Shown one piece after another: positions 28,015-59,736 of a stretch of 64,000 nt of DNA. Numbering within the stretch: the first letter of the stretch is position 1; each line of letters opens with the position of its first letter. The notes under the pieces are model-generated. The model ran no database searches. It worked only from the letters and a program-made list of their open reading frames with translations, and was not told where the DNA came from. This DNA comes from Dehalococcoidia bacterium (GTDB lineage: Bacteria > Chloroflexota > Dehalococcoidia > Lucifugimonadales > UBA3495): contig JASLXV010000023.1 in NCBI GenBank assembly GCA_030740155.1, positions 1-64,000 on the forward strand, in the 5' to 3' direction. Made by a program: the position numbers and the translations under genes.

Positions 28015-29061
28015 CTATCGGTCTTCGACACTGCCAGGTTGGACTAGGGGACGGCCGGTCCCGGAACTCCGGCGGCGGAAGGCCTGGCGTAGCACGAACA
28101 CCAGCGCGCCCAGGGCGATGATGCTGGCGTAGCTGATGGCTCGGTCCACCAGCACCATCGCCACGGCGGCGCTGCTCGCCAGGCTGGACAGACGCACGGC
28201 CAGACCGGAGACCCCCGATTCCACCGCCCCGAGTCCTCCAGGGGTTGGGAACAGGGTCAGCAGGGAGTTGGCCAGGGTCAGGAAAACGATCACGGCCAAC
28301 CCCAGGTCCAGATCCAGGGCCTGGACCACCAGGTACAATCGCCCCACCTCGGCCAGCCAGCCCAGCAGGCCCAGGACGGTGGCCGGCAGGACCCGGCGGA
28401 AGCTGCCCATGGTGCCTTCCTGGAAACGGCGGTAATGCTCGGACAGCCGGTCCGGCAGCTTTCTCAGGGTCCACTCCCTGGCCCAGGTCATCGCCGCCAA
28501 CACAAAGGCCAGCAGGAATACCAGGACGACGGCCAGCCCCAGCACTGCCCAGGCGGCCCGTCCGGTGTCACTGACCAGAAAGGGCACCGCCGCCGCCAGC
28601 ATCAGAACAACCAGGATGGCGTCCAGCGTCCGTTCCGCCAGGATGGTGCCGATGGTGCGGGGAAAAGATGCGCCTTGCTCGTCTCGGTGCAAATAGGCGC
28701 GGTAGGCGTCGCCCAGGCGTAACCACCCCACCGCATTGGCGAACCAGCCAAGCAGCAACAGTTGGCTGCAGTAGAGCACGCCGGGAACCGGCGCGTCGTC
28801 GCCCTGAGTGTTGCGGAGAAGGAGCCGCCACCGGGCTCCTCGTAAAATGAAGGTCGAGTAGTGAACCAGAAAGGCCAGGGCCAGGTACCAGGGATTGCCC
28901 CCTCTAACCTGCTCCCAGGTTGCCCCCACGTCGACGTCGAAGCGGGTGGCGACGAAAACCAGGAAGGCCCCGGCCAGCGCCAGGGAGATCAGGGTGGGGA
29001 AGGAAAAAAACCGTCGCTTTAGATTGGTCGATTCTCCAGGGTTGCCGCCGGAGGGGGCCAT
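28015..29061 (-). CDS. Lysylphosphatidylglycerol synthase TM / UPF0104 flippase-like protein
   Basis: RGARW, RLGDAYRAY, ERTLD, PTPGGLGAVE motifs. Confidence 0.9.
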   Translation of the reverse strand: MAPSGGNPGESTNLKRRFFSFPTLISLALAGAFLVFVATRFDVDVGATWEQVRGGNPWYLALAFLVHYSTFILRGARWRLLLRNTQGDDAPVPGVLYCSQLLLLGWFANAVGWLRLGDAYRAYLHRDEQGASFPRTIGTILAERTLDAILVVLMLAAAVPFLVSDTGRAAWAVLGLAVVLVFLLAFVLAAMTWAREWTLRKLPDRLSEHYRRFQEGTMGSFRRVLPATVLGLLGWLAEVGRLYLVVQALDLDLGLAVIVFLTLANSLLTLFPTPGGLGAVESGVSGLAVRLSSLASSAAVAMVLVDRAISYASIIALGALVFVLRQAFRRRSSGTGRPLVQPGSVEDR

Positions 29062-54294: not shown

Positions 54295-55023
54295 TTAGAT
54301 ACCCGCACCGCGAGTAAACTCAGCCAACAGGGCTTCTTCACGCTCTGGGCGGTGGTTCGTTGCCGTTGCCTTTTGCACCACCCCAAGCTTCTCCTCGAGT
54401 TGACCTACTCGGTCCTGAAGTCTTTCGTGGCTGCGCAGTACCAGCGTGATAGCCTCCGCAACCGGATCCGGAAGGTCTGCATGGTCAAGAACGGCCATCG
54501 GGTGTGGTTTCTCTTGGACCACTTTGCCGGGGACGCCGACGACCGTCGCGAACGGAGGAACGGTTTTCACGACAACAGAGCCGGCGCCGACCTTCGCGCC
54601 ATCACCCAAAACCACTGGGCCAAGGACAGCGGATCCACCTCCCATCACAACATTGCTGCCCACGGTTGGGTGACGCTTACCCTTATCCAGCGAAGTCCCC
54701 CCCAGCACGACTCCCTGGTACATCAAGACATCGTCGGCAATCTCCGCGGTTTCTCCGATCACGACTCCGGAGCCATGGTCGATAAAGAACCGCCGGCCGA
54801 TCGTGGCCCCCGGATGTATTTCAATCCCGGTTAGAAACCGGCCGATGTGGGAAAGCAAACGGGCAAGGAAATAGATCTTGTGCCGCCACAGGTAATTCGA
54901 GACTCGGTATATCCACACCGCGTGGAGACCCGGATAGCAGAAGACTATCTCGAGTCTGGTCCGCGCGGCTGGGTCCATCTTGAAGACAGTTGCTATATCT
55001 TCTCTCAGTCTTCCAAACATCAC
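54295..55023 (-). CDS. cysE: Serine O-acetyltransferase
   Basis: [32 protein letters not shown]. Confidence 0.97.
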
Positions 55024-55091
55024 AGGCCTGTCCTAATTGTGGTTTTACTGCTCCGGCGAAGCTTCAGACTTTATTGAGAACCAGGTTTGGA

Positions 55092-56012
55092 TTACGCGAA
55101 GAGTCCCGTGGATAGATATCGCTCCCCGGTATCGGGTGCGATCACCACGATAAGCTTGCCGGCGTTCTCCGGTCTCTTGGCAACCTGTATGGCAGACCAG
55201 ACCGCGGCGCCTGAAGATATGCCTGCCAATATCCCTTCTTCTCTGGCAAGCCGCTTGGCCGTCGCCGCGGCATCTTCGTTAGATACCTGGATGATCTCGT
55301 CAATCAGGTCCGTACGGAGGACCTGCGGAACAAACCCGGCTCCTATTCCCTGTATCTTGTGGGGCCCGGGACTTCCACCGGAAAGGACCGGCGAAGCCAC
55401 AGGCTCGACTGCAATAGCTTTGAAACTTGGTTTTCGCGGTTTGATTACTTCGGCAACTCCGGTTATCGTCCCGCCGGTACCCACTCCCGACACTAGGATA
55501 TCCACCTGGCCATCGGTGTCGTTCCAAATCTCCTCGGCAGTGGTGAGCCGGTGAACCTCGGGGTTCGCCGGATTCATGAACTGTTGTGGCATGAAGGCGT
55601 TCGGGTCTTCTTTCACTATCTGCTCAGCCTTGCCGATGGCCCCTTTCATTCCCTCACTTCCCGGAGTCAGAACCAACTCGCAGCCAAAAGCAGCCAGGAG
55701 TTGCCGCCTTTCCTCCGTCATCGTCTCCGGCATGGTTAGAAGCAACCGGTACCCCTTGGAGGCACAGACCAGGGCCAATCCAATCCCAGTATTGCCGCTT
55801 GTCGGTTCAACAATGACGGTGTTTGGCCCGATCAGACCGGCTTTTTCCGCCGCCGCGATCATCGACAGGCCGATTCTATCTTTGACGCTGCTGCAAGGAT
55901 TGAACGATTCAAGCTTGGCCGCCACGGTGGCCGCTGCTCCGTCCAAGATGCGGTTCAATTTTACCAACGGCGTCCCACCGATCAGGCCAGTAATATCATC
56001 AGCTATTCTCAC
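55092..56012 (-). CDS. cysK: Cysteine synthase A
   Basis: [46 protein letters not shown] start. Confidence 0.98.
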
Positions 56013-56043
56013 GGTTGTGCCTCCTCAAAATGATCATTACGCC

Positions 56044-56072
56044 AAAAACCCCCAGTGATTTCACTGAGGGTT
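56044..56072 (-). terminator. Intrinsic terminator (attenuator) upstream of cysK
   Basis: mRNA AACCCUCAGUG-AAAU-CACUGGGGGUU followed by U tract (UUUUU in total). Confidence 0.8.
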
Positions 56073-56132
56073 CTGGTCTTTTCAGCCTGGTTTTCTTTGG
56101 ACAATCATTTACAGGCGAAAGACCTCACCCTC
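56066..56132 (-). promoter_or_regulatory. Antiterminator hairpin of the cys attenuator
   Basis: GAGGGU-GA-GGUCUUUC-GCCUG (56132-56112) pairs with CAGGC..AAAGACC..ACCCUC (56089-56066), taking the 5' arm of the terminator. Confidence 0.75.
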
Positions 56133-56230
56133 AAAATACAACAAGTGCAACAAGTACAACAGGTACAACAACAACCGGGGTTTCGGTCGACTTGGCTACA
56201 CATCTCGGAATCCTTCGCGGTGATTGCCAT
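56105..56230 (-). CDS. Polycysteine leader peptide (41 aa) of the cysK-cysE operon
   Basis: MAITAKDSEMCSQVDRNPGCCCTCCTCCTCCILRVRSFACK*; 11 Cys, 9 within 12 codons; below the ORF-track length cutoff. Confidence 0.85.
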   Translation of the reverse strand: MAITAKDSEMCSQVDRNPGCCCTCCTCCTCCILRVRSFACK

Positions 56231-56239
56231 GGCGGACAG

Positions 56240-56268
56240 AATATATCACATTCCATGACCATTGTGAA
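56240..56268 (-). promoter_or_regulatory. Putative sigma70 promoter of the cys leader
   Basis: TTCACA-N17-TATATT with TG extension, ending 9 nt before the leader ATG; no SD sequence. Confidence 0.65.
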
Positions 56269-56422
56269 AGTATGGTGGGGGGGCGGACCAATTGTCCGAG
56301 GTGGACTCAGCCAGTCGGAAAAGATTGGGGCAATATCAGGCGACAGTCTCGCCTTTCCGCCACAGTCTACCGCTGCTCTTTGGGCGGGCCACTTCTGCTA
56401 GCGTCTTGATGCGCCGCCCCCC

Positions 56423-57634
56423 TCACACCCACGGCGTGCGCTTGGAGCGCTCTTTTTCCGAAGTGTAGGCGGGAAGTCCCTGGCGTTCCAGGACCTCGGT
56501 CAGCGTTTCCTTGAACAGCCGGCGGTCGGAGGCGCCGATCACGGCCTGCTCGTGGGCCTCGGAGATCGCCACCGGGTACCCCTGGCCCCGGCGGCACTGG
56601 TCCAGGATCAGGCTGTGGCCCAGGGACAATAGCGTCTCGTCCAGCGCGACCCACCGGGGGACCTCCACCCTGGCTATCTCCTCGCCGCCGTGCAGGTAGT
56701 AGAAATAGACCTGCTGGGCCTCCCCGTAGTTCTCCCTGGGGACCGAGGAGTTGGTCCGGTAGATGGGGGAGCGCCACCCTGGGGGCAGCCGCCGCTGGAA
56801 CAGGTCCCGGTCCAGGACGCCTCCGGCCAGGTCGCAAGGGGAGCGGACGGAGCGCCGGTTGCCGCAGGACTGGCGGCACACACCCAGGTCGTGGGGGCAG
56901 AGGCAGCATCTGATGGCGTTGACCACCTCGGTGCTCCGGGGCAGGGAGACGTAGGCGGCCAGGGTGACCGGACGGCGCTCGGCCAGGTGCCGTAGCCGCT
57001 CCAGCGCCGGAATCAGCCGGTCGCGAATAATCGCCTCCCTCACGAAGGGCCGGTATCCCTGGCCGGACAGTCCCCAGAGCACCAGGGAGCCGTCGACCAA
57101 CGCCAGGACCGGCGTATCGGAGGGGCACTCGGCGACGACCTCGGCCAGTTGCTCCAGCTCCCGCACCGTCCGCACCAGGCCTAGAAGGGGGCCGGTTACG
57201 GCCTCTTCCTGGGCGGGATTTCCGGGGTCAACGAGGTAGAGTTCCGACGGGCCGGCCCCGAGTTGGGGATGGCTGAAGAAGCTGGCATCGGGACGTCCGC
57301 CGTAGGTCAGAACGCACCCGCCGAGGTTGATCAAGTGGCAGCTAACCGGAAGGTGCCGGTCAACGTCGATGTGGGAGCCGTCCACCGCCGTCACCGACCA
57401 GTCCGCCGGCGGTGGCGGCGGCGCGTAGCTGCCCACCAGGCGGTCTTCCACTTGGGCGGCCAGAAAAGGCCGGTCGGTGGAGGTGCGGGTGATCTCGGCG
57501 GCCTCGGCGGGGTCGACTCCCTGGGCCGCCTCCAGCAGGGCGGTCAGCCGGGCTTCCCGGTCCTCCCGGGACTGGCCCAAACCCTGGGCCACCCGGTCCA
57601 GTTGATGGAGGGTCTCACCCAGGTCCAGGGGCAT
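56423..57634 (-). CDS. nurA: NurA-family nuclease
   Basis: AVDGSHI, LVDGSL, GYPVAISEAHEQA motifs. Confidence 0.9.
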   Translation of the reverse strand: MPLDLGETLHQLDRVAQGLGQSREDREARLTALLEAAQGVDPAEAAEITRTSTDRPFLAAQVEDRLVGSYAPPPPPADWSVTAVDGSHIDVDRHLPVSCHLINLGGCVLTYGGRPDASFFSHPQLGAGPSELYLVDPGNPAQEEAVTGPLLGLVRTVRELEQLAEVVAECPSDTPVLALVDGSLVLWGLSGQGYRPFVREAIIRDRLIPALERLRHLAERRPVTLAAYVSLPRSTEVVNAIRCCLCPHDLGVCRQSCGNRRSVRSPCDLAGGVLDRDLFQRRLPPGWRSPIYRTNSSVPRENYGEAQQVYFYYLHGGEEIARVEVPRWVALDETLLSLGHSLILDQCRRGQGYPVAISEAHEQAVIGASDRRLFKETLTEVLERQGLPAYTSEKERSKRTPWV

Positions 57635-57640
57635 CGCGGT

Positions 57641-59506
57641 TTACCTCAACACGCGCTCGTCGCCAACGCGACGGGTGATGTGCTGCTGGTCCAGGTATTC
57701 CAATAGGGGCAACACGTACTTGCGGCTGGAGTTGAACATGGTCCTGGCCTCGGCGACGGTGATGCTTTCGTTGGACTGAAGGTGGGAGACGACCCGGTCC
57801 GCCATCTCCCGGTAGGCGGCGGCGGTGAACACCACCGACGGGTTCACCCTCACCACCTGGCCCTGGTCGATCAGCACCCCCAGCAGCTCCGCTTCCAGGG
57901 GTTGGTCGCCGGGAGGCGTGTAAGGCTCCCGGCCCAGGATTTTCAAATATTCGGCCACCTGCTGCTGCATCTTGGGGGTCAAGGTTACCTGGTGGCCGGG
58001 GAGCCGCAGGAACGGGGCCTCTTCCACCACGTAGCTTTCGCCGGCCAGACGGGCCAACGCCCGGGTGAACGCGGGCTGAGACAGGCCGAGGCGGCTGCGG
58101 ATTTCCTGGACGGGCGCCCCCCGCCGCAAGGGGTATTGGCCGTGGTAGGTCTGGAGGGACACAAACATCTTGCTCTTGAGGATGTCCCAACTCTGTGCTG
58201 AGTAAACGACCGCGTCGTTATCGGTCCCCAACTCTCCCAGGACCACCACGTCCCCGTCGTCCACGAGGCTTGCCGTACGCTCCACGACCTCGGACGCCGG
58301 CAGGTTGGAGCGCCGGGATAGGGTCGTCAGATCGCAGGGGCCCCACTGCTCGGCGACGCTGAGCAGTATGTCTTCACCGGTGCCCTGGTCCAGCATCATC
58401 AGCCTTTCTTCCACCTCTGGGCTGAAGCGCCGGTGCCGCCGCCGGGGGTTCGGGTCCACCACCTGCCCCCCGCCCAGGGTATCTTCGGCGGAGCGGATGA
58501 CGAAGAAGTCCCCTTTTACCATCGGCAGGGATTCGTTCAACAGAATCTGCACCCAGCCTTCGGCGCCGGGGGCCAGCCGGTCGGCGTCCAGCAGCCGGAC
58601 CCTGGCGGTAGTCTCACTGGTGAACAGATGGAAGGTCACCCCCTCGTTGTGGCGCAGGGAGTGGGGCGCTCCCCGGACCATCCTCAACTGGGCGTCCAGC
58701 CTTCTGGTGGGCCTCAACCATCCGGGGGTGGTCAAGATTTCCCCTCGCTGGACCTCGGTGCGGGCCAGCCCGGAGATATTTACGGCCAGCCGGACTCCCG
58801 GCTGGGTGTTCTCCACCTTGGTCTTGTGGCTCTGCAATCCGCGAATCCTGCCCCGGCGGCCCGAGGGGGCTAGCTCTACCTCCTGCCCCACGGCCAGGAC
58901 CCCGTCGATGAGGGTTCCGGTGACCACGGTCCCGAAGCCGGAGATGGTGAAGCAGCGGTCCACGGGCAGCCGGGGACGCCCCAGGTCGCGCCGCGCCTCG
59001 GTGTCGTCGAGTATCCCGTCGAGGGCGGAGCGCAGATCGTCGAGCCCGGCCCCGGTGTTGGCCGATACCCCAACCATTGCCGAGTTTTCGAAAGAGGTCC
59101 CTTTCAGGGCGTCCTCGACCTCGGCCATGACCAGCTCCACCATCTCTTCATCGACCAGATCGGTCTTGGTGATCACCACCAGGTTGCGCCGGACCTGGAG
59201 GATGTCCAGGATGGCCAGGTGCTCCCGGGTTTGAGGCATGACGCTTTCGTCGGCGGCCACGATCAGCATAGCCAGGTCGATGGCGCCGACGCCGGCCAGC
59301 ATGTTCTTGATGAACCGTTCGTGGCCCGGCACATCGACGATGCTGACCTCCCGCCCGCTGGGCAAGGTCATCCAGGCGAATCCGAGGTCGACGGTCATCT
59401 CCCGCGCCTTTTCTTCGGGCAGGCGGTCCGGGTCGATGTCAGTCAGGGCCTTGACCAGCGTGGACTTCCCGTGGTCCACGTGGCCGGCGGTGCCTATCAC
59501 GTACAT
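57641..59506 (-). CDS. selB: Selenocysteine-specific elongation factor SelB
   Basis: [28 protein letters not shown]-terminal [13 protein letters not shown]...RVGDER. Confidence 0.97.
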
Positions 59507-59736
59507 TAGGGCATGATCGCTATGCGGGTGTCTTCGGGTCCAAGTACGTCGATGGCATGATGAAGGCACGCACGAATGTCCTCGGCTTTGAGGCCAGGGT
59601 AGTAATCCTGGGTTATCTTCCCGAAGGAAAGACCTTCCCTCACCAGTTCAAGCACACTCAATACCGGAATCCTGGTACCTGTAACACATGGCTTCCCATA
59701 ACGGATATCCTGGCTTACCGTGATTCCTTCGCTCAT
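59506..59736 (-). CDS. DUF433 domain protein (antitoxin-like)
   Basis: [26 protein letters not shown]. Confidence 0.9.

Follow-up and report, generated by a model that had tools for sequence, protein, structure and literature searches.

A predicted cysteine-sensing, ribosome-mediated transcription attenuator upstream of cysK-cysE in a Chloroflexota-type bacterium

The window analysed here is a stretch of 64,000 nucleotides (nt) from a Dehalococcoidia bacterium (Chloroflexota; GenBank assembly GCA_030740155.1, contig JASLXV010000023.1, positions 1 to 64,000), and the element in question is the leader of its cysK-cysE operon. Reading towards the genes on the minus strand, this leader comprises a putative promoter, a short upstream open reading frame (uORF) rich in cysteine (Cys) codons, and an intrinsic terminator whose 5' arm is shared with a predicted antiterminator. 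An earlier note, made from the letters of the window, had read the arrangement as a leader-peptide attenuator. A ribosome-mediated, cysteine-sensing transcription attenuator of cysK-cysE is indeed the best explanation of the predicted features and is probably correct. The features on which this reading is built are given below.

56240..56268, minus strand: sigma-70-like promoter, predicted, with -35 TTCACA (56268-56263), a 17-nt spacer and a TG-extended -10 TATATT (56245-56240)
56230..56105, minus strand: leader uORF, 41 codons plus the UGA stop codon (56107-56105), peptide MAITAKDSEMCSQVDRNPGCCCTCCTCCTCCILRVRSFACK
56173-56138, minus strand: putative regulatory Cys run CCCTCCTCCTCC, codons 20-31 of the uORF, 9 Cys in 12 codons
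56112..56134, minus strand: predicted antiterminator 5' strand, inside the uORF, codons 33-40
56064..56089, minus strand: predicted antiterminator 3' strand, of which 56070-56064 also belongs to the terminator 5' arm
56044..56070, minus strand: predicted intrinsic terminator, stem CCCUCAGUG (56070-56062) / CACUGGGGG (56057-56049), loop AAAU (56061-56058) and U5 (56048-56044)
56026-56020, minus strand: cysK Shine-Dalgarno sequence GAGGAGG, unpaired in the minimum-energy fold of 56140-55985
55092..56026, minus strand: cysK, including its Shine-Dalgarno sequence, with a GTG start at 56012 (TIGR01139, 470 bits against a cut-off of 350.95)
54295..55023, minus strand: cysE (serine O-acetyltransferase), the second gene of the operon (TIGR01172, 233.7 bits against a cut-off of 210.65)

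Re-reading of the coordinates agreed throughout with the earlier description: the uORF specifies 41 amino acids, its Cys run occupies codons 20-31, and 92 nt separate its end from the GTG of cysK. The promoter region reads TG-A-TATATT at the -10, followed by 9 nt (CTGTCCGCC) and the ATG at 56230. The predicted promoter agrees with the consensus at 10 of 12 positions and has the TG in front of its -10, a match to consensus only, and the region contains two promoter-like sites, where shuffles would lead one to expect 0.3. Since 9 nt separate the -10 from the ATG and no Shine-Dalgarno sequence precedes this start codon, the uORF is probably leaderless or nearly so, as predicted from the promoter spacing. 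Eleven of the 41 codons specify Cys, and ten of these are TGT, the minor Cys codon of the genome (1468 TGT against 5338 TGC). The +1 frame (56262-56131, minus strand) holds a further open reading frame (ORF) of 43 amino acids with a Val-rich run (VVVVPVVLVALVV), whose stop codon falls at the start of the antiterminator strand. This frame was considered as an alternative leader and rejected because its ATG precedes the predicted -10 and cysK-cysE are not genes cognate to valine.

Cysteine makes up 0.98% of codons in the long frames of the window's genome (G000, whose contigs include C99, C25 and C80), and only 14 stop-to-stop frames in its 3.6 Mb contain at least 5 Cys in 8 codons. Among short frames accompanied by a terminator-like hairpin, those of the window and of C99 rank at the top in Cys count and are lowest in local G+C. 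The genome was also screened for a -35/-10 pair with a start codon 5-11 nt past the -10, opening an ORF of 6-45 codons, and with a terminator no more than 150 nt away; this returned four matches: the window, C99, C80 and an unconvincing one on C67.

A Cys-rich frame of this kind could encode a functional micropeptide (metal-binding, redox or modified), its position before cysK-cysE being incidental or serving co-expression. The count of 11 Cys in 41 amino acids is compatible with metal binding, and trans functions are possible for leader peptides. Such a role is nonetheless very improbable, given that no homologue was found in 40 relatives or among the metagenome matches listed, that genes for peptide maturation or export do not adjoin the locus (its neighbours are NurA-like, SelB, cysK, cysE and a response regulator), and that the coding region doubles as the antiterminator strand.

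Folding of the leader (z = -3.6 for the whole leader) upheld the claim that a terminator hairpin with a U tract and a second, upstream fold are incompatible. The terminator stem has a GC-rich core of 9 bp, lengthened by A-U pairs, and forms in all unconstrained folds. The antiterminator is composed of two helices, 56134-56127:56071-56064 (8 bp) and 56124-56112:56089-56075 (13 bp with two bulges); the complementarity noted earlier between the last uORF codons and 56089-56066 holds over that range and extends to 56064. The two structures are mutually exclusive because both use 56070-56064 (7 nt), and their states have energies of -27.5 kcal/mol (antiterminator) and -34.8 kcal/mol (terminator). 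No structure forms in the Cys run, which precedes the antiterminator on its 5' side. Of 1000 dinucleotide shuffles applied to the 61 nt that precede the arm, 0 matched the antiterminator energy (mean -14.6, standard deviation 3.0); for the looser measure, in which the arm is paired with something, the figure was 157 of 1000.

Cysteine genes are usually controlled by protein regulators (CysB, CymR) or by T-box and SAM elements. A search of Rfam 15 over 55000-57500, at E values up to 10, found nothing within the leader (56044-56230); the two matches in the searched region were at chance level, to a eukaryotic and an archaeal family, and both lay outside the leader, and no T-box or SAM riboswitch was matched.

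The behaviour of the two folds was examined at different ribosome positions. The earlier note had put forward folding with and without codons 33-41 masked. Here, equilibrium folding under a ribosome mask shows no switch, and staged folding of the RNA made before the terminator 3' arm does. At equilibrium, a ribosome-sized mask was moved along the uORF, and the terminator probability was at least 0.94 in all ribosome states except that at codon 24, where it was 0.55. Because the terminator dominates at equilibrium, the switch must be kinetic; in classical attenuators, too, the terminator is stronger than the antiterminator and the decision is kinetic. The kinetic test folded only the RNA lying 3' of the ribosome and made before the terminator 3' arm exists. 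For A-site positions from codon 1 to codon 28, and hence throughout Cys codons 20-28, the fold of minimum energy is the antiterminator, and the 9-nt arm pairs with a mean probability of 0.70-0.78. This value falls to 0.06-0.14 from codon 30 onwards (0.06-0.10 at codons 30 and 31), where the ribosome covers the outer helix. A ribosome that has reached the stop codon covers the inner helix too, which leaves an alternative of only -3 kcal/mol. This staged folding predicts read-through for a stall in the Cys run and termination for a ribosome at the UGA.

The proposed mechanism would run as follows. Transcription would start at the ATG or a few nt from it, and 70S ribosomes would translate the leaderless uORF behind the polymerase in the leader. 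When Cys-tRNA is ample, the ribosome would run to the UGA (56107-56105), cover 56124-56112 and block the antiterminator, whereupon the terminator (56070-56049 and U5) would fold and transcription would end near 56044. When Cys-tRNA is scarce, the ribosome would stall on Cys codons 20-28 with its front edge 5' of 56134; the antiterminator (-27.5 kcal/mol) would fold ahead of the synthesis of the terminator 3' arm, and the polymerase would read through. In the whole-leader fold of the untranslated RNA, codons 3-10 pair with the antiterminator 5' strand, so that a uORF left untranslated would give termination as the default. The polymerase would enter cysK-cysE only when charged tRNA-Cys is scarce. 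The geometry of trp and his attenuators, to which the earlier note had likened the leader, is supported in silico at every sequence-level requirement, namely cognate Cys codons, an intrinsic terminator, an overlapping antiterminator and the ribosome geometry that couples them.

Termination rather than translation is the likely output, because the Shine-Dalgarno sequence of cysK is unsequestered, and folding makes an output via translational control unlikely. Stalling on Cys codons might still act through translational unmasking, mRNA stability or Rho-dependent polarity, in the manner of the mycobacterial polycysteine short open reading frames (sORFs), which are the sole experimentally studied polycysteine leaders and act on translation (10.1101/834739). 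The terminator 3' end at 56044-56048 is, moreover, a prediction from sequence. Such an output is quite improbable here, as GAGGAGG is unpaired in the fold of 56140-55985 and a canonical terminator stands between the uORF and this Shine-Dalgarno sequence, with the uORF 3' end competing for the terminator 5' arm. Metatranscriptome contigs from four libraries (three studies) cover parts of cysK and cysE and none of 56125-56500. One RNA-library contig (X16; 153 nt, no differences) spans 56121-55969, which takes in the 3' part of the leader, the terminator and the start of cysK, and is a weak hint of read-through molecules; X16 may be DNA carry-over, and contigs cannot show ends.

Most of the weight for the attenuator reading is carried by its context: by sister leaders in the same genome, two of them with Cys codons and one rich in aromatic residues, and by the conservation of one type among relatives.

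C99, 28577-28755 (locus L148, 778-956): second putative Cys leader, uORF MSSVVMAMTCCMCSCPCTLGGQEGHVI and strong terminator, 28614-28697
C25, 122453-122564, region to 122640 (locus L302, about 1500-1690), minus strand: third putative Cys leader, uORF MKHTGLTLNYDCTCTCPPS and terminator
C80, 49700-50170 (locus L369), minus strand: leaderless aromatic-rich leader MMISSHRFYGYYWLFTGSSAAGRGLVPENR and terminator, before DAHP synthase

The C99 leader has the promoter TTGACA-17-TAGACT, with 8 nt between it and the ATG, and a terminator CCCGCCAG...TTGGCGGG followed by T5. The gene directly behind it, inside which the contig ends, has NIR_SIR and NIR_SIR_ferr domains and is sulfite/nitrite-reductase-like; no NCBIfam equivalog cut-off was reached for it. 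The C25 leader, found with a covariance model (R1, described below; 44.6 bits, E 2.4e-6), precedes a MoeB/MoeZ-like adenylyltransferase (NF004281, 299.6 bits) and a cysK/M-family paralog, which suggests that a sulfur-carrier (CysO-type) cysteine route is under the same control. Downstream of the C80 leader, a candidate Phe/Tyr/Trp attenuator, lies the DAHP synthase gene (aroFGH; TIGR00034, 465.7 bits). The leaders on C99, C25 and C80 argue that the lineage generally uses leaderless leader-peptide terminators, notably for sulfur and cysteine genes. The window element is thus likely one of at least three Cys leaders in the genome, which would jointly form a ribosome-read cysteine regulon.

The leader found on C99 belongs to a conserved family. 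The sulfite-reductase-like protein was searched in the 40 relatives; 35 of the 41 genomes have one, and 30 loci were fetched. All but one of the 30 upstream regions contain TTGACA-17-TAnnnT, an ATG 6-11 nt (mostly 8-9) past the -10 and an ORF of 12-27 codons with 1-6 Cys near its end, the exception being L177, which is without such a Cys ORF. Three or more Cys codons occur in 23 of these ORFs, two in three and one in three, and the typical ending is C-x-C-T-C-P-P-T-TAG. By script-based detection, 24 of the 30 regions have a hairpin with a T run behind it. The alignment used 23 leaders; L164 was left out for a wrongly cut core, and six others because no T run had been detected in them. The terminator and a hairpin spanning the stop codon (CCUGUCCCC / GGGGGCAGG) have 81.8% of cells paired, compared with at most 51% for slid partners; double-sided changes occur at 14 of 21 pairs, a count matched by 1 of 500 shuffles, and at one pair of the terminator 10 sequences have G-C and 9 have A-U. 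The strand that follows the stop codon can pair with the terminator 5' side in 79.7% of cells (at most 62% when slid), with weak covariation (4 double-changed pairs, matched by 59 of 500 shuffles).

The covariance model R1, built from this sulfite-reductase-leader family, matches 29 of the 41 genomes, including 24 of 24 family relatives, and its two members in the window's genome score 68.4 and 44.6 bits. A second R1 match lies 1.0-1.2 kb upstream of a cysK paralog, on the same strand, in 10 genomes (the window's own and nine relatives). No Rfam match was obtained for L148, L154, L160, L163 and L170, nor for two cysK leaders introduced below (L061 and L044). Nearly all of the leaders L151-L170 end in C-P-P-(T/S)-TAG with the stop codon in the loop of the conserved hairpin; ribosomes might be slowed by the Pro-Pro motif as they finish the ORF, or the motif may be the mere coding face of a C-rich helix strand. 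The sulfite-reductase leaders of three relatives (L150 of G020, L155 of G010 and L171 of G037) have the peptide MR(Y/F)(G/E)DDLFHLC(T/M)..(PPT/LLM) in common, with one Cys codon, and this conservation of the peptide in place of a Cys run may point to an effect of the nascent peptide or to some other signal. The NurA homologue of relatives G020 and G007 lies 2.7-3.7 kb from the sulfite-reductase leader.

Several results weigh against the attenuator reading, beyond the dominance of the terminator at equilibrium, the looser shuffle measure and the limits of X16. The Cys run is a tandem repeat of 9 nt in 3.9 copies, the other frames of which read Val-rich and Leu-rich, and it could have originated by repeat slippage, whatever maintains it. 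A search of the 40 relatives with 241 nt of leader DNA gave chance matches only (best E 0.007 over 22 nt), and none of these relatives has a cysK with more than 50% identity to that of the window. The window leader is without covariation support because no orthologue was found. Against R1 with filters off, the best match of the window leader falls exactly on 56044-56152 (minus strand) and is non-significant (12.9 bits, E 0.84). A scan of metagenomes for the pattern TGYTGYACNTGYTGYACNTGYTGY gave at least 122 stretches, of which 80 were fetched; all of the latter were unrelated, none lay near a cysK, cysE or sulfite-reductase homologue, and their likeness to the leader was confined to the repeat.

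Leaders upstream of other cysK genes belong with these adverse points. A CysK search of genome contigs gave 80 loci with 66-78% identity from many phyla, and 16 of them were flagged for at least 3 Cys in 8 codons within 500 nt upstream; the sequence was read for L061, L044 and L039, and the other 13 were judged by peptide alone. Only two candidate analogues with terminators emerged from the 80 loci, both in Chloroflexota metagenome-assembled genomes (MAGs), with putative Cys uORFs reading ...LACMCCCSCTLRRGG... (L061) and ...NCICMCRQG... (L044). In a sample of the phylum (401 genomes, 208 with a CysK match), 29 + 60 = 89 upstream regions were screened and 4 + 17 flagged; no clear Cys leader was found in these regions, and L355, L333 and L325, which were read, each lack the combination of a start codon and a short Cys ORF. 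The search for poly-Cys uORFs upstream of cysK in Chloroflexota, which the earlier note had put forward, yielded the candidates L061 and L044 among the 80 loci and no clear case in the 89 phylum regions. Ribosome-position folding was also tried on C99, C25, L061, L044 and L154 and is not used here, the wrong terminator having been taken in L044 and L061 and the measure being diluted in short leaders.

Directly upstream of the cysK homologues of the relatives (29 loci, identity at most 50%), there was no clear case of a Cys-rich uORF. At one locus (L020, G005:C11, from a 1.5-Mb relative) a cysK paralog is preceded, at a distance of 110 nt, by a frame that ends ...SACKLICCRCTSM, has 4 Cys in 8 codons and may be a shortened leader of the C25-type operon. 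The flag raised at L012 was discarded, as it marks a long frame rather than a short Cys leader. The region upstream of cysK at L333 (G295:C31:5760-6250) contains several long, near-perfect hairpins that resemble a repeat element (-103 kcal/mol over 220 nt). Two MAGs of Bryobacterales/Bryobacteraceae (L092 and L111) have in common a frame ending ...PPRSPAC(N/S)(K/R)S(S/T)GCCSGR, which lies some 180-320 nt before cysK and could be a Cys leader of Acidobacteriota.

The window cysK-cysE operon was not found in the 40 relatives and looks accessory; in relative G020 a convergent gene, not cysK-cysE, comes after the NurA-like neighbour. In the window, genes for a NurA-domain protein and for SelB (selenocysteine elongation factor) lie directly upstream of the leader (56423-59569, minus strand). 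A competing explanation would be that the uORF is untranslated or non-regulatory, that the hairpin and U tract form a constitutive or leaky terminator insulating cysK-cysE from the NurA-like gene, and that the Cys run is a chance repeat in an AT-rich spacer. The period-9 repeat, the ATG without a Shine-Dalgarno sequence, the missing orthologous leader that might have revealed selection, and a terminator that always forms at equilibrium all agree with it. Even so, insulation is an unlikely account. The ATG stands 9 nt past a TG-extended -10, a spacing as in 29 of the 30 conserved leaderless Cys leaders of the lineage, and the open frame is the one cognate to the operon. The terminator, furthermore, lies 350 nt beyond the NurA stop codon and downstream of a promoter-like site, the antiterminator energy is reached in none of the 1000 shuffles, and two further Cys leaders precede sulfur genes in the same genome.

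If the attenuator reading is accepted, a wider hypothesis can be framed. The lineage may run a transcriptional 'Cys ribulon', in which at least three leaderless Cys leaders with terminators act on sulfite reductase, on the moeB-like/cysM-like operon and on cysK-cysE with no protein regulator needed, and the window copy may be a newly born attenuator that arose by 9-nt repeat expansion on an accessory operon missing in the 40 nearest relatives. This hypothesis is tentative, and the chances are somewhat less than even that it holds as a whole; if true, the newborn attenuator of the window would show the de novo origin of such switches. More generally, a full trp-style design before cysK-cysE, together with the sister elements, points to a ribosome-read cysteine regulon in abundant, hard-to-grow marine bacteria. 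The locus also highlights unannotated small ORFs and terminators overlooked by gene callers, provides sites for metatranscriptome 3'-end analysis, and offers a compact part for cysteine-responsive reporters.

The closest design is that of the classical leader-peptide attenuators (E. coli trpL and Salmonella hisL; also leu, thr, ilv and pheA), which are outlined in the introductions of 10.1101/834739 and PMC4007540. As in these systems, the predicted leader of the window has a short uORF rich in codons for the end product and, ahead of the first gene, an intrinsic terminator whose 5' arm an antiterminator overlaps. A ribosome terminating at the uORF stop codon would block the antiterminator, and the terminator is the more stable of the two folds, which makes for a kinetic switch. 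Unlike trpL and hisL, the leader would sense cysteine; it is also predicted to be leaderless, its ATG standing 9 nt past the -10 with no Shine-Dalgarno sequence in front. Its very long run has Cys at 9 of 12 codons, and the 10 codons behind the run bear the antiterminator strand; the host is a marine Chloroflexota-type bacterium, and the switch is a prediction from sequence.

Within the lineage, the CxCTCPPT-stop leaders resemble that of the window in having an ATG 6-11 nt past the -10, a Cys uORF, an intrinsic terminator, and a strand near the stop codon able to pair with the terminator 5' side, and they occur in the same genome and the same pathway. They differ in that their Cys codons form helix 1 and their stop codon lies in the hairpin loop, whereas the Cys run of the window is unstructured. 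No publication was found on a leader of this type before sulfite reductase or moeB-like/cysK-paralog operons.

Polycysteine leaders have been described in Actinobacteria. In a 2005 study (PMC1262725), they are short ORFs that lie before cysteine genes and have their Cys runs close to the stop codon; conserved terminator hairpins are lacking, and dependence on Rho was proposed. The leader of the window differs in its clear intrinsic terminator. The leaderless polycysteine sORFs of mycobacteria (Ms5788A, 'Cys ribulon'; Canestrari et al., 10.1101/834739) have a Cys tract that pairs with the Shine-Dalgarno sequence of the next gene. A reporter in that study excluded transcription termination as the mode of regulation, and its authors considered uORF-mediated attenuation for cysteine previously undescribed; a later paper (PMC13236596, 2026) cites the mycobacterial case as translational. 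The earlier statement that Actinobacterial polycysteine leaders have no classic intrinsic terminator is in accord with these sources. In common with the mycobacterial sORFs, the locus analysed here has consecutive Cys codons upstream of cysteine and sulfur genes and several such loci per genome, the window uORF being predicted as leaderless from promoter spacing only. It differs from them in that the Shine-Dalgarno sequence of cysK is free and a canonical terminator/antiterminator pair is present.

A further parallel is provided by Deinococcus deserti, in which a leaderless leader of 10 amino acids with two Cys precedes cysS and is among 14 leader peptides predicted for transcription attenuation by de Groot et al. 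(2014, PMC4007540). The two leaders are alike in being leaderless (predicted in the window), in their Cys codons and in the predicted transcription attenuation. The D. deserti leader differs in its target, a tRNA synthetase gene, in having only two Cys codons, and in belonging to another phylum, and no terminator/antiterminator analysis accompanies the passages on it. Neither a Cys leader-peptide terminator attenuator in Chloroflexota, as the earlier note had already supposed, nor a classical terminator-type leader-peptide switch for cysteine in any organism was found in the open-access PMC and bioRxiv literature. Within that literature, the mechanism proposed for cysK-cysE is a classical one, and what is new is its combination of cysteine with an intrinsic terminator.

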